Assembly (NCBI GenBank): GCA_963851265.1
Contig: CAWKNZ010000008.1
Location: forward strand, 160,001-224,000
Direction: 5' to 3'
Source: an uncultured Gemmatimonadales bacterium
GTDB taxonomy: Bacteria > Gemmatimonadota > Gemmatimonadetes > Gemmatimonadales > Gemmatimonadaceae
DNA length: 64,000 bases
Part shown: positions 1-11,539 of the stretch, one piece after another
Position numbering within the stretch: the stretch's first letter is position 1
Layout: every line of letters begins with the position of its first letter
Position numbers and translations under genes: made by a program
Notes under the pieces: model-generated
Seen by the model: only the letters and a program-made list of their open reading frames with translations
What the model was told of the DNA's origin: nothing
Databases searched by the model: none

Positions 1-2308
1 CGCTCGGGTTGGGCTCGAGCACGCACCCCGCCCGCGCCCCGTACAACAGCGCGAGCCGCTGCCGTACGCCGCGCAGCCCCGCCCCGCTCCCCACGCCGCC
101 GGTGCCTGGCTGCGCCGCCGGCTGCGCCGCCGGCTGGGCCGCGCCCCTCGGACCACCCGACCGCGACGCGGCCGGCGTCGCGGCGCAGACTCCCACGCCG
201 TCGTCCGCCACGAGGAGTTCGAGTGCGGGGCCGGCGCGGCGCGCGCGGATCGCGAGCCGGCCGCCGCCTCCACGCGGCGCGATCCCGTGGCGCACCGCGT
301 TCTCGACGAGCGGCTGCAACACGAGGTGCGGCACGGCGGCGTCCGCGACGTCGGGCGCGACGTCCCACACCACGGCGAGCGTGCCCCCCGACGCGCCGAG
401 ACGGGCCCGCTCGAGCGCGAGGAACGGCTCGAGGCCCGCGACCTCCTCGTGCAGGCTCACCTCCTGCACGTCGACCCACGCGGCCGCCTCGCCGGCCAGC
501 GCGGCCAACGCCGCGAGCAGTCGGCCCGCCGCCTCGGGAGCGCTCCCGACCAGCGCCGCAGCGGTATGCAGCGCGTTCCCGACGAAGTGCGGGTTCATCT
601 CCGCCTTGAGTGCGCGCAACTCGCTGCGTCGGCGCCGGTCGGCGTGCGAGCGGTGCGCCGCTCGCGCTTCGGCCACGATCTGCGCCGTCCGCCTGTGCTC
701 GCCGCTCAGTGTCACCACGCGTGCGATCGTCACGAAAATCGCGTAGAGCACGAACGCCGCCAGCACCCGCGAGATGAAGTCACCCGCCGTGATCGGCGCG
801 ATTCCGGGCATCAGGGACGCCCGCACCGCTGCCCGGAGCGCGGTCGCCAGGGCCGAAATCCCGAGCCCGATTCCGACGGTGGTTGGGAGCGCGTGGGCGA
901 CCCGATCGGCCGCGCCGAGCGGCCACCGGCGTGCCACCGTGACGGCCGCCGCGCAGATGAGCCCCTGCGTGATCGCGACGTTGCCGATGACGAGGAGCAC
1001 GACGCCCGAGGTCCATGCCATGCCGTAGTGCGACGCCGTGTAGGCCCACTGCAGCACGACGTACAGCGCGCACAACCCGGCCACGATCCCCGCATCCCAC
1101 GCGTCGCCCGACGCGGGAGGGGCGTGACCCGTGGTGGCCAGCACCCACTCCTCGAACACACGCTCGCGCGGGTCCGCCGGCGCCCCGCCGGGCGCGACCG
1201 GCTGTTCGTCGAGCAGAAGCGGGAGGCGAAGGCGGACGTGCGGATCACCTGCTGAACTCGCCGTGGTGGCGAACTGCCACCGCCCGGCGTCGCCGTAGAA
1301 ATGGTCGAGCAACCGACCGAGCGCCACCGCGGACCGGGGCGCGACCCCCGAGACGTCGAGTTCGAGCCACCGTTCGCCGTCGAGCGACACGGCCGTGCCG
1401 CGCAAACTCACCTCCCCCGCGCCGCGCACGCTGGCGAGCAGCGCGGGAACGACGAGATGCGGCACGAGCACCTCTCGGACGTCGTCGTCCACGACGTAGC
1501 GCACCGCGCCCGGGTTCATGGGTTCTGGCGCGCTCGGGCCGCCCCGCTCCTCGGCCCCGCGCTCGCGCGCCGCGTCGACCTCCTCACCCAGCGTGACGGC
1601 GTCGGCGGCCGCGCCGGCGACGGCTTCGCGCATCAGGAGTCCGAGCTCGACGACGACGCGTTCCGCGGAGGCCGGATCGGTGTGGACGAGCGCCTCCGCC
1701 GTCGTCAGCGCGTTCGCGATGAGCACCGGGTGGAGCTCGGTCTTCACCGCCCGCAGCTGCGCGGTCACCTGGTCGCGTCCGGCCCGCTCGACCGCGCGGA
1801 GCACGTGCAGGTGGACGGCACGCGCGCGGCGCACGCGCGTCGCGAAGACGCGCGCGTGCGCGACGACAGCCCACAACGCGTACCAGATCAGCCCCTCCGC
1901 CAGAAGGGTCGTCGCCTGCCGTGCACTCGGCCGCGCGACGAACGCCTCCGACGCGCCTTCGGCCGTCGCCGCCAGCAACGCCGCGACGGCGCCGACTCCC
2001 ACGTGCGCCCGCAGCCGCTCCTTCCAGCGCCGCCCCATGACGGGCCGGCGGTACGACGTGGTGAACGCCGCGAACACCGGCACGCCAAGGCTGACGCCCA
2101 GGAGCAGCGCGCGGAGTGCCTCGACCCATCCGAATGCGTGCCGCCCGGGCGGCATGCGGTCCCAGATCTCGGCGACGCCCACGAGCCCGGTCGCGCCGAA
2201 CAGCGCCGGCGCCCACGGCCCAGGGCGGCGGCGCGCTGCTGGTGCATTCGAGTGGGCCACGGCCGTAGGAGGTGGGGGTGACGGCGCGCAGTGGTCTGCG
2301 TGTAGCAC
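1..2308 (-). CDS. Membrane sensor histidine kinase, LytS/YehU type, with an additional degenerate N-terminal kinase module; 3' end outside the window
   Basis: Absent from the ORF track because there is no stop in the window. Read by hand as one open minus frame from GTG 2308 (start uncertain, 2260 possible). Contains ELRALKAEMNPHFVGNALH (~560-625), VPHLVLQPLVENAVRHGI (~280-335), GLRGVRQRLALLYG near the edge, and hydrophobic segments. Confidence 0.85.
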   Translation of the reverse strand, partial: MLHADHCAPSPPPPTAVAHSNAPAARRRPGPWAPALFGATGLVGVAEIWDRMPPGRHAFGWVEALRALLLGVSLGVPVFAAFTTSYRRPVMGRRWKERLRAHVGVGAVAALLAATAEGASEAFVARPSARQATTLLAEGLIWYALWAVVAHARVFATRVRRARAVHLHVLRAVERAGRDQVTAQLRAVKTELHPVLIANALTTAEALVHTDPASAERVVVELGLLMREAVAGAAADAVTLGEEVDAARERGAEERGGPSAPEPMNPGAVRYVVDDDVREVLVPHLVVPALLASVRGAGEVSLRGTAVSLDGERWLELDVSGVAPRSAVALGRLLDHFYGDAGRWQFATTASSAGDPHVRLRLPLLLDEQPVAPGGAPADPRERVFEEWVLATTGHAPPASGDAWDAGIVAGLCALYVVLQWAYTASHYGMAWTSGVVLLVIGNVAITQGLICAAAVTVARRWPLGAADRVAHALPTTVGIGLGISALATALRAAVRASLMPGIAPITAGDFISRVLAAFVLYAIFVTIARVVTLSGEHRRTAQIVAEARAAHRSHADRRRRSELRALKAEMNPHFVGNALHTAAALVGSAPEAAGRLLAALAALAGEAAAWVDVQEVSLHEEVAGLEPFLALERARLGASGGTLAVVWDVAPDVADAAVPHLVLQPLVENAVRHGIAPRGGGGRLAIRARRAGPALELLVADDGVGVCAATPAASRSGGPRGAAQPAAQPAAQPGTGGVGSGAGLRGVRQRLALLYGARAGCVLEPNPS

Positions 2309-2585
2309 AACGGCGGTCGTAGGGTAATCGGTGCCCGGGCGATCGCGCGCGGGCAGTTGCCGCGCGAGCGCCAGCGCCGCCCGTCAGGACGCGTCGGAAC
2401 TGCTACCGTGAACCCGCACCTCCGCCCGCGCCGCGCACGCCTCCGGCGGTCTGGAGCGCGGGTGCGATCCCAAGACGCTTGCGCGATCCGGGCGTCGGCC
2501 CCACCGTCGCGCACGCCCGGGCCACGCCCGATGCGCAGAGCCGTGGCGCGACCCGAGATGTCCCCTTCACCCAGCGGAGTGTCCG

Positions 2586-2921
2586 ATGGCGGATTCAGAG
2601 CACGGCGGCCAAGGCGGCGACGCCGGGGGCCCGAAGAGCGTGGAAGCGCGGCTGACCGAGCTGGAAAACGCCGTGCGACAGATGACCGGTGGTGGCGCGG
2701 GTGGCGCTGCGGGCGCGGCGGCACCGGCCGCGCAGGGCGTGACCTGCAACACCTGTCACGTGTGCGCGATCGCGTGTCACGTGTGCGTCGTGTGCAGCGT
2801 GTGCCACGTGTGCCAGGTCTGCCAGGTGTGTCAGGTCTGTAGCGTGTGTCGGGTCTGCCACGTGTGCCAGGTATGCGCCGAATGCACCTGCGGACCGGCC
2901 AGCCCGCCGGGCGGGGCGTAG
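2586..2921 (+). CDS. Cys-rich RiPP precursor peptide with Cys-x-x repeat core
   Basis: 111 aa with GGAG upstream. Helical leader VEARLTELENAVRQM, Gly/Ala linker, then 17 Cys in residues 54-102. Directly upstream of YcaO and SagB genes. Confidence 0.85.
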   Translation: MADSEHGGQGGDAGGPKSVEARLTELENAVRQMTGGGAGGAAGAAAPAAQGVTCNTCHVCAIACHVCVVCSVCHVCQVCQVCQVCSVCRVCHVCQVCAECTCGPASPPGGA

Positions 2922-2933
2922 TGGCGCCGTCGC

Positions 2934-2966
2934 TGCCGCGGGGGGCGCGCGGCGCGCCCCGCGGCA
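2934..2966 (+). terminator. GC-rich stem-loop between the precursor and YcaO genes
   Basis: TGCCGCGGGG (2934-2943) pairs perfectly with CCCCGCGGCA (2957-2966). No clear U-tract, so it may be an mRNA stabiliser or attenuator. Confidence 0.5.
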
Positions 2967-2990
2967 CGCCCCTTCCCTCCGCCTAACGCC

Positions 2991-5435
2991 ATGGCGCGGG
3001 TCCGCATCAGTCGCGCGGTGGGCGTGACGTTCACGCCCGACGCGGCACTCCTGCGTTCCGACCTCGGCACCGTCGCCCTCGACGGCAGCGACGTCGTCCC
3101 GTTCCTCGCGCGCCTCGTCCCGCTGCTCGACGGGACGCGCGACCTCGACGGGATCGCGGACGCGCTCGCGCGCGAGTACACGCGCGCGAGCGTCGTCGGA
3201 CTCGTCGGGATGCTCGCGCGGCGGGGCCTCGTCGAGGACGTGCCCGACGCGGGCGACGCCGCCGCCGGTGGGGGCGAGGCGCGCTTCGCCGGGCAGCTCG
3301 ACTATTTCGCACAGTGGACCGACGACCCGGCGGCCCCCCTCCGCCGGCTGCGCGACGCGCACGTCGCCGTGGTCGGGCTCGAACCGTGGGGGGTCGGCGC
3401 GGCGGTCGAACTCGCGGCGTCCGGCGTGGGCGCGCTGCACCTGATGGACGACGCGCCGGTCACCGACGACGACCTGCTCGCGGCCCGCGCGCTCACGCCC
3501 GCGCACGTCGGCCGCCCGCGCGCCGCCGCGCTCGCCGCGGTGCTCGCCGAGGCCGCGCCGTGGACGCGCGTCACGCACGGCCCCATGGCGCTGAACGACG
3601 CGCACGAACTGGCGCTCCCCGCCGAGCCGTGGGCCCTGGTGCTCGCCGCCGCGGCGGTCGACGACCTGGCCTTGCTCGACGCGGTCGCGCGTGCGACCCA
3701 CGCGCGCGGCATTCCGTCGGTGTACGCGCACCTCGACCTGCTCGAGGCGGTGGTCGGGCCACTCGTGATTCCGGGCGAGACGGCCTGCTGGAACTGCACG
3801 CGGCTGCGGCACCTCGCGACGAGCGACACGGGCGCGCGCGCCCACCAGCTGCAGCACGCCCTGCTCCGGGCGCCGCTGCGCGCTCCGCCCGACGACCCGG
3901 CGCGGCCGCGGCGGCGCACCTACCTGGCGCCGATGGCGGGGCAGCTCGCCCACCTCGTCGCGCTCGAAGCGGTCAAGTTCCTGTCGGGCTACGTCGTGAG
4001 CACGCTCGTGGGGCGCGTACTCACGCAGGACCTGGTCCGCCTAACGACGAGCTGGCACACGGTCGTGCGCATGCCGTGGTGCCCGGTGTGCGGCGGCGCG
4101 GACGGCGCGGACGGCGCGGGAGCCGGGGGCGCCGCGCGTCCGCTCGACGACGCGGGCTCGCCCGAGGCGCTCCGCGAGCGCCTCGCCGGCTGGGTGGACG
4201 CGCGCGTGGGCGTCGTCCGGTCCCTGCACGTGAACGTGGCCGAGATCGACGAGCCCGAGCTGCCGATCACGACCACGGCCCTGCTCGCCGACTACACCGA
4301 GGGGGACTTCCGCGCGCGCGACCCCGAGCTGGGCTCGGGCAAGGGCCTCACCGCGGTGGAGGCGATGATCGGCGCCGTGGGCGAGGCCGTCGAACGCTAC
4401 TCGGCGGCGCGCGTCCCCCCCGGCCGCCTGCGCCGCGCGCGTGCCGCCGCGCTCGCCGGCGAGGCCGACGTGCTCGACCCCGCGCGCCTCGCGCACTACA
4501 GCGACGCGCAGTACGCGCACCCGGGGTTCCCGTTCGTGCGCCCCGACCCGGAGGGGCCGATCGACTGGACGCTCGGCCGCTGGCTGGGCGGCGACGCGCC
4601 GGTGTGGGTGCCGGCGTTCCCGACCTACTACAACCTGCACGTGCCGCGCGCGGAGCGCTTCTGTCAGGTCAGCTCCAACGGCCTCGCGGCGGGGGCGAGC
4701 CGAGCGGACGCCGCGATGCGCGCCACGATGGAGCTGGTGGAGCGCGACGCGTTCACGCTCACCTGGCTCGCGCAGCTGCCGGGCCGCCGCCTGCTGCCCG
4801 ACGACGCACTCGACGTCGGCGCGCGCGAGGTGCTGCGGCAACTCGAGCTCTGCGGCGCGCGCGTCGAACTCTACCTGCTCGACGCCACGCTCGGCGTGCC
4901 GGCGGTGCTCTGCCTCGCGCTCGGCGACGGCGTGCGGTGGCCCGGCGCGACGGTGGCGCTGTCCGCGCACCCCAACCCGCGCCACGCGGCGCGGAAGGCG
5001 TTGCTGGAGCAGGGCCACGTGGGGCCGTTCGTGCGGCGCCTGATGCGCGGCGGTACGCAGCGCGTGCCCGAGACGCCCGACGACGTCCGCTCGCTGATCG
5101 ACCACGCGATGTACTACGTGCCGCGCGAGCGCCAGGCGGCGTTCGACTTCCTGCGCCGGGGCGGCGGCGATCCCGTGCCGGTCGGCGACCTCGCCGTGCG
5201 CGACGCCCTCACCGAGGGCGAGTGCGCGGCGCTGTTCGCGCGCGAGGGCGTGCGGGTGGCGATCGCCGACGTGACGTCGCCCGACGTGGCGGCGGGGCCG
5301 TTCCGGGTCGCCCGCGCGTTAGGCGAGGACGTGCAGCCGATCCACTTCGGCCACGCGCTCGGGCAGGTCGCCAACCCGCGCCTCGCGCGCCGCCTGGCGC
5401 GCGGGCTGCACCCGCACCCGCACCCCCTGGCGTGA
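2991..5435 (+). CDS. Fused leader-binding/E1-like (ThiF-like) + YcaO cyclodehydratase
   Basis: N-terminal RRE-like segment; ThiF-like VAVVGL motif with CWNC and CPVC; YcaO motifs GKG, GEAVERY, SSNGLAAG, ELVERDA; Pro-rich C-terminus HPHPHPLA typical of azoline-forming YcaOs. Confidence 0.93.
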   Translation: MARVRISRAVGVTFTPDAALLRSDLGTVALDGSDVVPFLARLVPLLDGTRDLDGIADALAREYTRASVVGLVGMLARRGLVEDVPDAGDAAAGGGEARFAGQLDYFAQWTDDPAAPLRRLRDAHVAVVGLEPWGVGAAVELAASGVGALHLMDDAPVTDDDLLAARALTPAHVGRPRAAALAAVLAEAAPWTRVTHGPMALNDAHELALPAEPWALVLAAAAVDDLALLDAVARATHARGIPSVYAHLDLLEAVVGPLVIPGETACWNCTRLRHLATSDTGARAHQLQHALLRAPLRAPPDDPARPRRRTYLAPMAGQLAHLVALEAVKFLSGYVVSTLVGRVLTQDLVRLTTSWHTVVRMPWCPVCGGADGADGAGAGGAARPLDDAGSPEALRERLAGWVDARVGVVRSLHVNVAEIDEPELPITTTALLADYTEGDFRARDPELGSGKGLTAVEAMIGAVGEAVERYSAARVPPGRLRRARAAALAGEADVLDPARLAHYSDAQYAHPGFPFVRPDPEGPIDWTLGRWLGGDAPVWVPAFPTYYNLHVPRAERFCQVSSNGLAAGASRADAAMRATMELVERDAFTLTWLAQLPGRRLLPDDALDVGAREVLRQLELCGARVELYLLDATLGVPAVLCLALGDGVRWPGATVALSAHPNPRHAARKALLEQGHVGPFVRRLMRGGTQRVPETPDDVRSLIDHAMYYVPRERQAAFDFLRRGGGDPVPVGDLAVRDALTEGECAALFAREGVRVAIADVTSPDVAAGPFRVARALGEDVQPIHFGHALGQVANPRLARRLARGLHPHPHPLA

Positions 5436-5446
5436 GGCGCGGCGCC

Positions 5447-6205
5447 ATGACGCACGACGACGACCCGGACGTCGCCCGCATCTTCCACCTGCACTCGTCC
5501 AACGTGCGGCAGCGCGTGGTGGAGCTCGCGCTCGACCACGACCGGCACCCGTTCCGGTTCCGCACGTACCCGGGCGCGCCGCGCGTCGCGCTCCCGGGGC
5601 GGGATTTCGACGGCCTCGACGTTCCGCTCGCCGAGCTGCTCCGCCGGCGCACGTCGTCGCGCGCGTTCTCGACCGCGGCCACGCTGCCCGTCGCGTCGCT
5701 CGGCCGCCTGCTGTACGCGAGCTACGGCCTCAACGGGCAGCGCGAGATCGACGGCCAGCGCCTCCACGCGCGCCCCGCGCCGTCGGCGGGCAGCCTCTAC
5801 CCCATCGAGCTCTACGTCGCGGTGCAGCGCGTGGACGGTGTGGACGACGGCCTGTACCACTACGACGCGCGGGCGCACGAGCTGGAGCTGCGCCGCCCGG
5901 GGCGCGTGCACGCGCAGCTCGCCGACATGACCATCGGCCAGACGATGCTCGCCGACGCGAACGTGGTCGTGTTGATGACGGCCGTGTTCGCGCGGACGAT
6001 GTGGAAGTACAAGCAGCGCGGCTACCGCTACGTGTGGCTCGACGCGGGCCACGTCGGCCAGAACCTCTACCTCGTGGCCGACGCCCTGGGGCTCGGGGCC
6101 GTGGCGGTGGGGGGGTTCTACGACCGCGAGCTTCACCGCCTGCTCGCGCTGCCGGACGCGGAGGAGGCGGTGGTGTATCTGGTGTGCGCGGGCGTGCGTG
6201 CCTAA
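5447..6205 (+). CDS. SagB/ThcOx-family FMN-dependent azoline dehydrogenase
   Basis: True start is ATG 5447 within track ORF 3314..6205. Motifs RRTSSRAF, PSAGSLYP, WKYKQRGYRY (Lys-Tyr pair), DAGHVGQN. Confidence 0.92.
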   Translation: MTHDDDPDVARIFHLHSSNVRQRVVELALDHDRHPFRFRTYPGAPRVALPGRDFDGLDVPLAELLRRRTSSRAFSTAATLPVASLGRLLYASYGLNGQREIDGQRLHARPAPSAGSLYPIELYVAVQRVDGVDDGLYHYDARAHELELRRPGRVHAQLADMTIGQTMLADANVVVLMTAVFARTMWKYKQRGYRYVWLDAGHVGQNLYLVADALGLGAVAVGGFYDRELHRLLALPDAEEAVVYLVCAGVRA

Positions 6206-6292: not shown

Positions 6293-7831
6293 CTACCGCC
6301 CGGCGCGCGCCGCGGCCGCCGAGCCGCGGTAGCGCGCGTACGGGGCGGCGTAGGCGCGCGCCGCCGCCGCGTCGGGCGCCTCGGCGGCGCCGCGCGTGAG
6401 CGTGGCGCGCGTCGCGGTCGCGAGGTCCGGGTAGGCCCCCGCGCCCACGGCCGCGAGCAGCGCCGCCCCGTACGCCGGGCCCTCCTCGCGGTTCACCGTC
6501 CGCACCGGCACGCCGTACACGTCGCGCTGCAGGCCGCGCAGGAACGGACTCCGCGCGCCACCACCGGTCAGCAGCACCTCCGCCGGCGCGAGTCCCAACT
6601 CGCGCAGAATCTCGACGCTGTCGCGCAGCGCGAAGCACACGCCCTCGAGCACGGCCCGCGTCAGGTGCGCCCGCGTGTGCGCGAGACTCAGGCCGAGAAA
6701 CGCGCCGCGCAGGGCGGCGTCGCGGTGCGGCGTGCGCTCGCCCTGCAGGTACGGCAGGAACGTGACGCCGTCGGCGCCCGGGGCGACCCCGGCGGCCTCC
6801 GCGTCCAGGCGCGCGTCCGCGTCGGGCGCGCCGGCGAGGTCGCGCGCGAGCTGCGCACGGTACCACGCGAACGCGCCGCCCGCGGAGAGCACCACGCCCA
6901 TCACGTACCACACGCCGGGCGCGACGTGGCAGAACGTGTGCGCGCGCAGCGCCGGGTCCACGCGCGGCTCGGCCGTGGGCGCGAGCACCGTCCCCGAGGT
7001 CCCCCAGCTCGCCACGGCCTCGCCGGGCGCGACCACGCCTACTCCGGCCGCGCCGCACGCGTTGTCCGCGCCGCCGCCGACCACCGGCGTCCCCGCCCGC
7101 AGCCCCGTCGCCCGCGCCGCCTCGGCGGTCACGGCGCCCAGCACCTCGGCCGACCCGCCGACGTCGGGGAGCAGCGTGCGCGGCACGCCCACCGCGGCGA
7201 GGAGCTCGTCGCTCCAGCCGAGCCGCGCGGGGTCGAACATCAACGTCCCCGACGCGTCGGACGGCTCGGTGGCGAGCGCGCCCGTGAGGCGGAAGCGCAC
7301 GAAGTCCTTGGCGAGCAGCACCGTCGCGAGTCGCGCGTACGCCGCGGGCTCGTGCGCGCGGAGCCAGAGCACCTTGGGCAGCGTGAAGCCTTCGAGCGCG
7401 GGGTTCCGCACCCAGTCGCGCAGCCGCGCCTCGCCGCCCGCGGCGCGCGTGATCTCCGCGCACTCGGCCGTCGTCCGCCCGTCGCACCAGAGCAGCGCCG
7501 GGCGGATCACCTGCCCCGCCCGGTCGAGGAACACCGACGAGTGCATCTGCCCCGAGACGCCCACCGCCGCGACCCGCGCCGCCGCGTTGGGCACCTCCGC
7601 GAGCACCGCGCGCGTGGCCGCGGCCACGGCGTCCCACCACGCGTCCGGGTCCTGCTCGGCCCACCCCGGCTCGGGCGTCGCGAGCGCGAGCGGGACGGTG
7701 GCCGCCGCGCGCACGTCGCCGCCGCCCGCCCCGCTCCCGACCCCCACGAGGATCGCCTTCACGCCGCTCGTGCCGACGTCGAGGCCGAGCACGAGCGCGT
7801 CGGCCGTCCCGCCGCCCAACGCGTCCGCCAC
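6293..7831 (-). CDS. xylB: Xylulokinase
   Basis: FGGY kinase motifs GLDVGTSGVKA, SGQMHS, PYLQGERTP; abuts xylA. Confidence 0.93.
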   Translation of the reverse strand: MADALGGGTADALVLGLDVGTSGVKAILVGVGSGAGGGDVRAAATVPLALATPEPGWAEQDPDAWWDAVAAATRAVLAEVPNAAARVAAVGVSGQMHSSVFLDRAGQVIRPALLWCDGRTTAECAEITRAAGGEARLRDWVRNPALEGFTLPKVLWLRAHEPAAYARLATVLLAKDFVRFRLTGALATEPSDASGTLMFDPARLGWSDELLAAVGVPRTLLPDVGGSAEVLGAVTAEAARATGLRAGTPVVGGGADNACGAAGVGVVAPGEAVASWGTSGTVLAPTAEPRVDPALRAHTFCHVAPGVWYVMGVVLSAGGAFAWYRAQLARDLAGAPDADARLDAEAAGVAPGADGVTFLPYLQGERTPHRDAALRGAFLGLSLAHTRAHLTRAVLEGVCFALRDSVEILRELGLAPAEVLLTGGGARSPFLRGLQRDVYGVPVRTVNREEGPAYGAALLAAVGAGAYPDLATATRATLTRGAAEAPDAAAARAYAAPYARYRGSAAAARAGR

Positions 7832-9104: not shown

Positions 9105-11343
9105 TCAGGGCACCGCGTCGCAGCGCGGCTTCCGCGGGTCGGGCGGACAGCGCAGGCGTTCGTAGTAGTCCAGCGGGTGCGCCGCCGGTTCGAGCCCCGC
9201 CGGGAACGGGCGGCGGGAGAACTGCTGGAAATACTGCGTCGCCGCGTCGCGCCACCAGCGCGCCTCGCGCTCCTGGATCGCGAGGAACTGCTGGACGTCA
9301 CGGAAGCGCTCGGCGTCGACCCGGCCCTCGAGCGCGTTCCACGCCCGCTGCATGCCGCGGACCGTGTCGACCCCGGCCTGGTAGCGCAGGGCGAGCTCGT
9401 CCCAGAGCGTGCGCCCGCTCGCGAGCCGCGCGCCCCACGGCACGTGGTGGAACCACAACAGCAGCGAGTCGGGCGTCGTCGCCGGGTCCGCGAAGCGCCG
9501 CCGGAGCGGCTCCGCGTACTGGGCGACGGCGTCGCTCCCCGTCGCGGTCCGGTCGAACCCGAGCCCGAGCGTGTCGGCGCGGTGGTAGTAGCGCGGCGTC
9601 CAGTCGGGCCGGCCGGCGTCGGCCCACGGGCCCGGGCCGTAGTGGTGCCCGGTGGCCATGATGTGGGCGAGGCCTAACGGCGTCATGTAGTTCACCACGG
9701 CCTCGCGCGAGGCCATCATCATGCGCACGATCGGCGCGGCCACCGCGGTGTCGGGCGACCAGGTCATCCGCGCCCAGTCGTCGGCGATCGCGCGCGCGTC
9801 GGCCGCGGGGTCCCACGCCAGCCGTCCGAAGGCGTACCAGTTGGCCTGGTTGAACTGCGAGCCCGTCCAGTCGCGGTCGGTGCCGACGTTGGCGACGCCG
9901 GCGATCCCGGTGAGGCGGTGGCCGTCGAGCGACCCGTCGACGACGCGCGCGACGGTCGCCCCCGGGCCGCCGCGGTACGTGTCGGCGCGCAGCACCTCCG
10001 AGAAGTACGGGCCGAGGTAGACCGAGGTGGGTGTCCTGGCCGAGGTACTCCTTGGTGATCTGGAACTCGATCATCAGGGGCGTGTGCGGCATCGCCCCGA
10101 ACAGCGGGTGGAACGGCTCGCGCGGCTGGAAGTCGAGCGGCCCGCTCTTCACCTGCACGATCACGTTGCGGCGGAAGCGGCCGTCGAGCGGGACGAACTC
10201 GTCGTACGCCTGGCGCACGCGGTCGCGCGGCACCTCGTGGCTGTAGACGAAGGCGCGCCACATCACGATGCCGCCGTGCGGCGCGACCGCGTCGGCGAGG
10301 GCGTTGGCGCCGTCGGCGTGCGTGCGGCCGTAGTCCTGGGGGCCGGGCTGCCCCTCGGAGTTGGCCTTGACGAGGAAGCCGCCGAAGTCGGGGACCGCCG
10401 CGTAGACGGCGTCGGCCGTGGCCTTCCACCACGCGCGCACGCGCGGGTCGAGCGGGTCGGCCGTGGGCAGGCCGCCGACCTCGCGCGGCGCGCTGAAGCG
10501 CGCGGTCAGGTAGACGCGCACGCCGTAGGGCCGCAGCACGCCGGCCACCGCGGCCACCTTGGCGAGGTACGGCGGGGTGAGCGCGCGCGCGTCGGCGTTC
10601 ACGTTGGTGAGCACGGCGCCGTTGATGCCTAACGATGCCGCGGCGCGCGCGTAGTCGCGGTAGCGCGGCGAGAGCGCGGGCAGGCTGTCCCACGCCCAGA
10701 TCGACCGCCCCGCGTAGCCGCGCTCGACGGTGCGGTCGAGGTTGTCCCAGTGGTCCAGCATCCGGCGCTGCACGCGCGGCGCGTCCGCGACGGCCAGCCC
10801 CGCGAGCGGGCGCCCGGTCTGGACGAGGCGCAGCAGTCGGAACGCGCCGTAGAGCACGCCGACGTCGCGGTTGGCCGCGACGACGATCGCCGGGTGGCCG
10901 CCGAGGGTCGTCGAGCGGATGACGTAGCCCTCGTCGCCCGCCGCGCGCAGCGCCGTGCCGAGCCCGAGCGAGGCGACGAGCGGCGAACTCGCCGGCGTGC
11001 CGGCGACGAGCAGCGCCGCGTGTCCCGCGCCCGCCGCGCTCGCCACGGGAACGGGGCTCCCCAACAGTCCGCCGAGGGCGGTGACGAGCTCGTCGCGCGC
11101 GGCCTGCAGCGTGGGCGAGGTGCCCTGCACGACGATCGTGCCCACCGCCTCGCGGTCGCGGCGCCGGAGCGCCGTGTCGGGCAGGGGGCGGTACCGCAGC
11201 CAGAGGTCGTAGCCGTCGTCGGCGCGCGCGGCGCGCGCCGGGTATGCGCTCGCCGCGACCGTGAGGGCGAGCGCCAACGGCCGCAGCGCGCAGGTCAGGC
11301 GGCCGTTGACGTCGCGGACGGGGGGAAGCGCGCGGCGGGGCAC
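9105..11343 (-). pseudogene. aguA: GH67 alpha-glucuronidase with a 1-bp frameshift (real or assembly error)
   Basis: Signal peptide, DGYDLWLRY, LDHWDNLDRTVERGYAG, GPLDFQPREP, KEYLGQDTHL. One extra base at 10022-10023, then VYLGPYFSEVLRADTY continues in the frame of ORF 9105..9995. Confidence 0.88.
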
Positions 11344-11370: not shown

Positions 11371-11475
11371 GGACGGGACGGGCTCGCACGGGACGGGCCC
11401 GCACGGGACGGGCCCGCACGGGACGGGCCCGCACGGGACGGGCCCGCACGGGACGCGCCCGCACGGGACGCGCCC
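11371..11475. repeat. Tandem repeat, 7 x 15 bp (GCACGGGACGGGCCC)
   Basis: Read directly; no spacers; lies in the divergent GH67/GH115 intergenic region. Confidence 0.9.
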
Positions 11476-11539
11476 GCGCGCGGCGGGTCCGCACGGATGG
11501 CGGAGGTCACGACGCGGCTGGCGGACCGCTGCGTCATCA

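Follow-up and report, generated by a model that had tools for sequence, protein, structure and literature searches.

Architecture of the locus

The window comprises 64,000 nt of an uncultured Gemmatimonadales bacterium (Gemmatimonadaceae; assembly GCA_963851265.1, contig CAWKNZ010000008.1, positions 160,001-224,000, forward strand). Three adjacent genes on the same strand, encoding a Cys-rich peptide, a fused cyclodehydratase and a dehydrogenase, are flanked by a divergent and a convergent gene:

2..2308, minus strand: LytS-type sensor kinase, divergent flank (Pfam His_kinase and HATPase_c)
2576..2579, plus strand: ribosome-binding site GGAG of the precursor gene (sequence; GGAG likewise stands ahead of the ATG in the Gemmatirosa locus L002)
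2586..2921, plus strand: precursor peptide gene, 111 aa (P0001; ORF, family profile)
2640..2684, plus strand: leader helix, residues 19-33, heptad V19/L23/L26/V30/M33 (AlphaFold)
2649..2666, plus strand: R-hxxhE motif RLTELE within the leader helix (sequence motif)
2745..2891, plus strand: core, 17 Cys, (x-Val-Cys)n (9-bp period, 73% matches, varied wobble bases)
2880..2897, plus strand: family end motif, here ECTCGP (family consensus ECxCGPC)
2991..5435, plus strand: fused cyclodehydratase RRE-E1-YcaO, 814 aa (curated profiles, domain matches)
5447..6205, plus strand: SagB-type FMN dehydrogenase, 252 aa (TIGR03605)
6005..6010, plus strand: Lys187-Tyr188 of SagB (alignment with the KY of CyaGOx/ThcOx)
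6293..7831, minus strand: FGGY sugar kinase of a xylose/xylan locus, convergent flank, right boundary marker

The precursor displays 17 Cys between residues 54 and 102, a span of 49 aa, with a Cys-Cys spacing of three in 14 of 16 intervals and Val preceding 12 of the Cys, so that the x-V-C core proposed in a preliminary description of this DNA is borne out by the ORF at 2586-2921. The core, with 17 Cys, 14 Val and a single Gly per 53 aa, is approximately neutral (1 Arg, 1 Glu, 4 His) and, unlike the Gly-rich leader linker, poor in Gly. The calculated mass of the unmodified peptide is 10,790 Da, or 10,659 Da once Met is lost. In the end motif, Ala replaces the last Cys, a residue near-invariant in the relatives. 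The AlphaFold model (mean pLDDT 55.7) is confident for the helix alone, comprising residues 19-33, with a pLDDT of 88 at residues 21-30. Over the 20 leader codons PKSV...MTG, a hand count against the Gemmatirosa locus gives 12 synonymous and no non-synonymous differences, the protein being identical, and the precursor has no Pfam family match.

A DNA-microsatellite artefact as the source of the repeat is ruled out by the wobble variation and the conservation of the family. In the six-frame translation of the 4.6-Mb genome, period-3 runs of at least six Cys occur twice, in the precursor and in one low-complexity run. Since bare xVC repeats arise by chance in other frames, the case for a precursor rests on the leader, the tail and the neighbouring genes and not on the repeat. 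The precursor profile matched 10 other genomes among 400 in a search of the phylum, and in 9 of these 10, dropped as low-complexity matches without leader and tail, chance xVC matches were the sole kind.

The cyclodehydratase comprises (i) an N-terminal RRE at about residues 1-90, which matches the PbtF RRE (8t19) over residues 23-82 with an E value of 1e-5; (ii) a ThiF/E1 domain at residues 117-356, with CxxC pairs at 266/269 and 364/367; and (iii) a YcaO domain at residues 449-775, the protein ending in HPHPHPLA. The best solved relatives are TruD (E 5e-23) and LynD (E 6e-18), with which the ATP-binding motifs GKG..EAVER and SNG..ELVERD align. The protein scores 219.8 bits on TIGR03604 against a cut-off of 219.25, a margin of just 0.55 bit, and 69.2 on TIGR03882 (cut-off 36.9), whereas SagB reaches 161.9 on TIGR03605 (cut-off 78.4). 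The preliminary description, in which the N-terminal RRE was not mentioned, had called a minimal azole-peptide cassette with a fused E1-like/YcaO protein carrying a Pro-rich tail and a SagB with a KY pair; the three adjacent same-strand genes, the three curated cut-offs passed, the PHPHPLA end and the aligned K187-Y188 agree with each of these points.

No macrocyclase gene lies within the cassette. The FGGY sugar kinase is not a cassette member, and the sensor kinase probably also lies outside, as homologous loci are without the same gene. A lanthipeptide island with NHLP peptides, LanM and an NHLM transporter is located about 6.5-25 kb upstream. Elsewhere in the genome, a second YcaO on contig C2 scores under the TIGR03604 cut-off, and tblastn found no further RRE-E1 partner protein. 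A promoter and terminator scan of the locus gave no signal exceeding shuffled sequences, and no RNA sequencing run containing the locus is listed, against one DNA run with a small share.

Precursor family and conserved neighbourhood

The family profile gathers 211 precursor clusters, with no NCBIfam or Pfam match, each built from a helical leader, a repeat region of the form (x-Val/Ile-Cys)n and a terminal ECxCGPC. ECxCGP is present in 122 of 123 family sequences and the full ECxCGPC in 121, Val or Ile precedes 792 of the 1581 family Cys, and the mean Gly content is 5%. The phmmer search returned 24 matches, of which 11 without leader and tail were dropped; P0020, with the leader and a variant tail, enters one alignment only, P0013 is counted only via the 211-cluster profile, and P0006 was dropped. 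The precursor pattern gave no match in viral contigs, and an ESM Atlas search returned two clusters at 0.80, a lead only.

The expectation that homologous precursors would stand next to YcaO genes holds from both directions, with E1, YcaO and SagB neighbours found in relatives. Starting from the precursor, 20 of 31 metagenomic pattern matches are true precursors; RRE-E1 follows directly downstream in 15 of them, the other five having at most 307 nt of downstream DNA, and before the contigs end nine loci reach YcaO and eight reach SagB. Starting from the enzyme, all 28 clade loci (L002-L029), which are not independent because 19 are from Sorangium, have upstream a Cys-rich precursor whose heptad leader is related. 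In an all-against-all comparison of called genes over 29 loci, with a crude gene caller that may miss genes, the cyclodehydratase and SagB alone recur across genera; genes for a protease, an exporter or immunity are not common to several genera, and metal genes are not conserved as neighbours either, with one occurrence each of VIT1 and Cu/Zn SOD.

In the YcaO tree, five precursor-type groups need four changes, the minimum possible, against a shuffled mean of 19.3, a label test that shows clustering only, since kin share labels. YcaOs with the C-terminus HP[LMVI]A cluster together relative to eight reference YcaOs (SH-aLRT 97). The YcaO of L077, a short match, was left out of both trees, and 16 near-duplicate rows out of the second.

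Predicted product and possible functions

The cassette very probably constitutes a complete minimal LAP/TOMM system, its predicted product being a linear poly-thiazole peptide. As judged from genes and motifs, the pathway would comprise (i) supply of the 111-aa precursor by its own gene, which is present; (ii) binding of the helical leader by the RRE of the fused enzyme; (iii) cyclisation of Cys onto the preceding carbonyl, mostly of Val, by the YcaO and ATP, for which the motifs are present, giving thiazolines as in TruD and LynD; (iv) oxidation of these to thiazoles by SagB and FMN, as in ThcOx, every ring formed lowering the mass by 20 Da, to a maximum of 340 Da if all 17 Cys react; and (v) removal of the leader by host enzymes, TldD/PmbA domains being encoded on contig C4, or its retention. 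Removal by the host or retention would be expected because the cassette is not accompanied by genes for a protease, export or immunity. The product would be a rigid (x-Val-thiazole) chain, x being polar or cationic, with a length that varies among relatives, and the end motif, in which Glu precedes Cys, may escape modification.

As to function, a cell-retained product that binds metals or buffers redox state is tentatively preferred over an antibacterial one. Val/Ile-thiazole cyanobactins bind copper, and sonorensin is antibacterial. Against the metal reading, cyclisation removes the thiolates that a metal sponge would use, a conserved metal-gene neighbour is absent, the cores of 103 of 123 relatives are net positive, as in ribosome-binding phazolicin, and the heterocycloanthracin clusters, likewise with three conserved enzymes, include sonorensin. 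By the same chemistry, a cleaved and exported phazolicin/sonorensin-type antibacterial, binding rRNA or DNA via stacked thiazoles and cationic side chains, is possible if somewhat doubtful. Phazolicin likewise combines an azole every third residue with cationic residues, Arg occupies the position two before Cys more often than any other residue (366 of 1581 Cys), and the distribution is patchy, with 3 of 301 family genomes including the present one; the peptide could be cut at the TGG after the leader helix and exported via general pumps or the TIGR03796 peptidase-ABC transporter encoded about 21 kb upstream of the cassette (C8:139090-141228). However, no exporter or immunity gene is conserved, whereas the phazolicin cluster has an export pump, the core at this locus is approximately neutral, the double-Gly site is missing in most relatives, and the flanks of L002 differ. 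A function outside both readings is rather unlikely.

The leader itself could belong to the product. The R-hxxhE motif, described as a specifier of parallel trimers (PMC3653964), is present in 111 of 123 leaders against 2.7 in shuffled leaders (maximum 8 in 500 shuffles), in a g-a-d-e register where position a is mainly Ile and position d mainly Leu, so that an uncleaved trimeric product is conceivable, in which a retained coiled coil would bundle three (x-Val-thiazole)n strands of tunable length into a cell-retained, metal-binding polyazole rod; the lack of a protease in the cassette fits. This is nevertheless quite unlikely: the count is partly circular, as the 123 sequences were gathered by searches using the leader of P0001; of 11 close-clade precursors examined, 7 lack the motif while keeping the heptad; the helix comprises just about two heptads; R-hxxhE occurs in dimers and antiparallel trimers too (PMC3653964); and RRE binding alone could account for its conservation. 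The predicted complex between RRE-E1 and residues 10-53 of the leader (score 0.02, mark 0.32) was counted for neither side. Still less probable is a metallothionein-like thiolate protein with few or no azoles, for which the dense CxxC spacing, the His content and the missing exporter speak, while the strict coupling of the peptide to an azoline-type YcaO and a KY-type oxidase in every testable locus, the strong Val/Ile bias before Cys and the lack of a Pfam family match argue against it. That YcaO and SagB act on the three NHLP precursors from the upstream island, the Cys-rich ORF being incidental, has next to no likelihood. Fused cyclodehydratases are known to pair with NHLPs (PMC2887384), and the NHLPs lie nearby, but they have at most one Cys per core and their own LanM alongside; they match TIGR03793, a nitrile-hydratase-like leader profile with no match in P0001, NHLP and LanM genes occur in none of the other 27 loci compared, and the Cys-rich gene keeps its place immediately ahead of the enzyme in different phyla.

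Relation to known azole-peptide systems

Anabaenasin is a TOMM enzyme group named bioinformatically from 11 genomes, cyanobacterial ones among them, by Cox, Doroghazi and Mitchell (2015; PMC4603692), where no product is characterised, cluster architecture is given as not conserved, and D proteins are linked at a BLAST E value below 1e-54. The YcaO scores 415 and 405 bits against the Sorangium loci L025 and L028 (E 1.5e-143 and 1.9e-139 at a database size of 1e7), assigned to rows of the published table by eye from their precursor sequences, and by sequence it joins anabaenasin under that rule. It shares 52-53% identity with the enzymes of Sorangium So ce56 and So0157-2, the precursors of which appear under anabaenasin in the table, and falls in the same tree group as a Paracoccus denitrificans enzyme; the helical leaders are related, the Paracoccus precursor matching the family profile with an E value of 3e-10. 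In contrast, the anabaenasin cores in that table are Gly/Cys-rich, whereas here (x-Val-Cys)n with one Gly in 53 residues leads to an ECxCGP end, and discrete C and D proteins are described for the group, whereas here RRE, E1 and YcaO form one 814-aa chain. The two Sorangium members are fused too, as an RRE-less E1-YcaO with a separate RRE-E1 protein, and the Paracoccus locus has an extra radical SAM gene. Culturable carriers include Sorangium So ce56, Paracoccus denitrificans and Roseovarius albus.

The suggestion of a distinct, possibly undescribed family goes too far: the Val-Cys, Gly-poor core and the fused enzyme differ from the anabaenasin group, but by the published grouping rule the YcaO belongs to it, and a Roseovarius precursor with the family motifs CGINDC and ECSCGPC is present in Table S2 of Travin et al. 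(2020; PMC7136475). Related precursors are thus present without discussion in two supplements, and the searched passages of both main texts hold no discussion of a Val-Cys core. The literature searched, which leaves most subscription papers outside its scope, yielded no described product or chemical study of the family, no use of the name anabaenasin outside Cox et al. 2015, and no published ECSCGPC, CGINEC, ECTCGPC or (V)CRVCRVC. PMC7298704 and PMC10352776 deal with other clusters. On sequence grounds, the cassette is not a new class but a Val-Cys variant of the anabaenasin enzyme clade.

The 211 precursor clusters would represent a much larger, Val-Cys-core branch of that clade, with the present cassette, three genes in 3.6 kb and a predicted loss of up to 340 Da, as its simplest test case. 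Near-complete conversion of the Cys would make the product exceptionally rich in thiazoles for a ribosomal peptide, and a single enzyme lineage that accepts Val-Cys, Pro-Cys, Gly-Cys and Ser-Cys repeats would be of use in building polyazole backbones. With neither exporter nor protease present, the cassette also allows one to ask directly whether certain azole peptides work within the cell that makes them; if the trimer existed, a ribosomal peptide with its leader as a structural part would occur in several phyla with only three genes.

Compared to heterocycloanthracin/sonorensin (TIGR03601; Haft 2009, PMC2674419), the cassette shares a Cys-Xaa-Xaa repeat core and only three conserved enzymes. 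The precursor, however, is not Gly-rich and has no TIGR03601 match at E <= 0.1, and the RRE is fused to the cyclodehydratase and not carried by an F protein beside an N-terminally truncated enzyme, which upholds the earlier separation of the two. A Sorangium relative scores 20.3 on TIGR03601, below 35 and through the repeat only, and the F-dependent Brevibacillus reference YcaO is 27% identical and lies outside the clade. With phazolicin and klebsazolicin (reviewed in Travin et al. 2020, PMC7136475), the predicted product shares linearity and, with phazolicin, an azole every third residue, a spacing therefore already known. Those clusters carry an export pump, absent here, and phazolicin comprises 27 aa with Cys- and Ser-derived rings, whereas the present peptide is longer and Cys-dominated with a hydrophobic repeat. 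The RRE-E1-YcaO layout and the KY oxidase pair resemble cyanobactin TruD/LynD and ThcOx/CyaGOx; unlike in cyanobactins, the leader is different and the PatA/PatG proteases are absent, the flanks being a sensor kinase and a sugar kinase, so that no macrocycle is expected. The genetic hallmarks of LAP/TOMM systems are present: a leader and Cys-rich core adjoining the enzymes, a PxP-tailed azoline-type YcaO, an E1 with RRE, and SagB.

The cassette and its genomic surroundings

The cassette comprises three genes, whose placement in the preliminary description is confirmed by annotation:

Genes of the cassette (positions in the window)
2586-2921: precursor gene; 111 aa, with 17 Cys within residues 54-102
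2991-5435: fused cyclodehydratase; 814 aa, with an RRE, an E1/ThiF-like domain, a YcaO domain and a PHPHPLA C-terminus
5447-6205: SagB dehydrogenase; Lys187-Tyr188 aligned with the CyaGOx pair

The RRE of the 814-aa protein matches that of PbtF (E 1e-5), and the protein scores above the cut-offs of TIGR03882 and, by a narrow margin, TIGR03604; among solved proteins, TruD and LynD are the best relatives. The cassette is bounded by a LytS-type kinase gene, divergent, and a sugar kinase gene, convergent. In the precursor, P0001, 14 of the 16 Cys spacings are three residues and Val precedes 12 Cys. Because only synonymous change separates the leader codons from those of the Gemmatirosa homologue (20 conserved codons, 12 synonymous and 0 non-synonymous differences, our own count), the small ORF is a real gene.

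A separate peptide island lies ~5-25 kb before the window (G000:C8:142000-161999, L001, minus strand, and C8:135878-141228). It comprises three precursors with NHLP leaders and Cys-poor, hydrophobic cores, short double-Gly peptides, a LanM of 1095 aa (TIGR03897) and another, LanM-like ORF of 997 aa, recognised by eye. An HlyD-like gene, an NHLM peptidase-ABC transporter and a sigma-54 activator are also present, as is a LytTR regulator whose partner is the sensor kinase of the window. Within the window, a xylan/xylose locus (GH115, xylose isomerase-like gene, FGGY kinase, GntR) includes a GH67 alpha-glucuronidase (9105-11343, minus strand) split over two frames near 9995-10030, one ORF holding the N domain and the middle domain, the other the end of the middle domain plus the C domain, a frameshift or assembly error; a 15-bp tandem repeat (11373-11496, 8.3 copies, 91% matches) separates the divergent GH67 and GH115 genes. 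A second YcaO of this genome (G000:C2:380135-381214, L077) occupies an open frame of 909 codons and scores below the TIGR03604 cut-off; no convincing precursor was found nearby.

The precursor family and its coupling to the enzymes

P0001 has no match in Pfam or NCBIfam, and none of 15 close relatives exceeds any NCBIfam cut-off. A profile from 16 sequences retrieved 211 precursor clusters at E <= 0.001, the best 120 of which show no Pfam domain and no informative name. Counted over 123 sequences (15 seeds and 108 new matches), precursors contain 10-19 Cys, with a spacing of three in 1007/1458 Cys intervals and Val or Ile before 792 of 1581 Cys. ECxCGP is present in 122, a Gly-rich FxxF/L tail in 104 and a CGINEC-like N-terminal cap in 89; P0001 belongs to a shorter-leader subgroup with neither cap nor tail.

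Working from the peptide, we ran a degenerate DNA pattern on metagenomes and obtained 31 matches, 20 of them true precursors (including L057, L063 and L064, near-copies within the set); 11 were dropped, ten without a profile match and one a chance match. RRE-E1 lies directly downstream in 15 of the 20, the other five having <=307 nt of downstream DNA; YcaO is reached on nine contigs and SagB on eight, and the gene order never varies: precursor, cyclodehydratase, dehydrogenase. Working from the enzyme, 28 of 29 genome loci belong to the clade of the window's YcaO, and each of the 28 is preceded by a Cys-rich precursor whose heptad leader is related. The refuting case named by the preliminary description, homologues mostly lacking YcaO/SagB, is not what these loci show. 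Core types cluster on the YcaO tree: Gemmatimonadota have Val-Cys cores, Thermoanaerobaculia and Endozoicomonas have Pro-Cys mixtures, and Sorangium has Gly-, Ser-, His- or Arg-Cys. Among called genes of the 29 loci (crude gene caller; 27 genes annotated, mostly neighbours), only cyclodehydratase and SagB recur across genera. In the host family the cassette is sporadic (3/301 genomes searched, including the window's).

At L055 (6940-7722), two precursors stand in tandem ahead of one enzyme pair; their leaders are nearly identical, their cores differ. The Endozoicomonas precursor (L029:4685-5707) runs ~280 aa after its likely start, with >50 Cys in CGPVQCVTCLQ-type repeats. Sister Sorangium clusters (L003-L007, L009, L013-L015, L018-L026, L028) have an E1-YcaO that lacks the RRE, and SagB is followed by a separate RRE-E1 gene, so that within this clade their layout resembles that of heterocycloanthracin. 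Their cores are hypervariable, among them (CS)n, (GGC)n and (HC)n; L003 holds two tandem precursor-enzyme pairs.

Proposed maturation and function

Gene content, catalytic motifs and precursor-enzyme coupling are the observed part of the mechanism. By analogy with established YcaO/SagB chemistry (Haft 2009, PMC2674419; Travin 2020, PMC7136475), the leader would be captured by the RRE of the cyclodehydratase; ATP would then drive cyclodehydration of Cys onto the carbonyl before it, and oxidation with FMN would yield thiazole, a mass change of up to -340 Da. The cassette has no dedicated leader-removal gene, and the peptidase-ABC transporter ~21 kb upstream is part of the separate NHLP/LanM island. 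The host genome encodes four TldD/PmbA domains; TldD/PmbA has a role for microcin B17.

A helix with a heptad pattern (residues 19-33) is predicted for the conserved leader, which carries R-h-x-x-h-E in g-a-d-e register. This motif has been described as a determinant of parallel coiled coils with three strands and also occurs in some dimers (PMC3653964). Its occurrence in 111/123 precursors, against 2.7 in shuffles, together with the period-three core and a cassette devoid of a protease, would suit an uncleaved leader and a trimeric product. We regard this as a real possibility but an improbable one: the 123 sequences were gathered with this very leader, the motif is missing in 7/11 close-clade precursors, and RRE recognition would keep the same stretch conserved.

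As to function, we lean slightly, and tentatively, towards a cell-retained, metal-binding product, because exporter and immunity genes are absent across several phyla. The same absence speaks against an antibacterial product, a possible and close alternative, although heterocycloanthracin clusters are as lean in gene content and 103/123 cores are net positive.

Relation to known azole-peptide systems

By every genetic test the cassette appears to be a linear azole-peptide (LAP) system and should work like one, a precursor with a YcaO-type cyclodehydratase and a dehydrogenase being the minimal LAP cluster as defined by Travin 2020 (PMC7136475). The membership tests applied indicate that it is not heterocycloanthracin, as suggested previously, nor cyanobactin or NHLP. 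Cox et al. 2015 (PMC4603692), grouping YcaOs at E < 1e-54, named 'anabaenasin', a group of 11 whose product is uncharacterised. The precursors of the Sorangium loci L025 and L028 match two anabaenasin rows of their Table S2; against the enzymes of these loci the YcaO domain of the window reaches 415 and 405 bits, respectively, far past that rule. The same list includes Paracoccus denitrificans, the best plasmid match, whose YcaO has HPLA at its C-terminus and joins the clade (SH-aLRT 97; quick tree, 8 reference YcaOs), and whose precursor reaches E 3e-10 on the family profile. This precursor is identical by eye, letter for letter, to an Acidovorax 'NHLP-Burk' row in the Cox table, which may be misplaced. 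In the Paracoccus cluster (L078:2029-7493), an additional gene for a B12-binding radical SAM protein separates the precursor from the C protein.

Table S2 of Travin et al. 2020 (PMC7136475) holds the So ce56 precursor and one from Roseovarius albus with a CGINDC cap and an ECSCGPC end; the main text names neither Sorangium nor Roseovarius. In the literature searched, 'anabaenasin' occurs only in Cox et al. 2015, and no main text contains the family motifs; subscription papers or bioRxiv supplements, beyond that scope, could hold a description.

On sequence grounds, the cassette sits in the anabaenasin enzyme clade. Whereas anabaenasin is described with a discrete enzyme and a Gly-rich precursor, the window's enzyme is fused and its precursor is not Gly-rich; since both descriptive features fail, we file it as a putative new Val-Cys variant, not a typical member. 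The earlier proposal of a possibly undescribed family goes too far: the YcaO falls inside a group named in 2015, and related precursors are listed in supplementary tables. The family is real, widespread, chemically unusual and readily testable, but it varies a class already known and belongs to a named, unstudied group.
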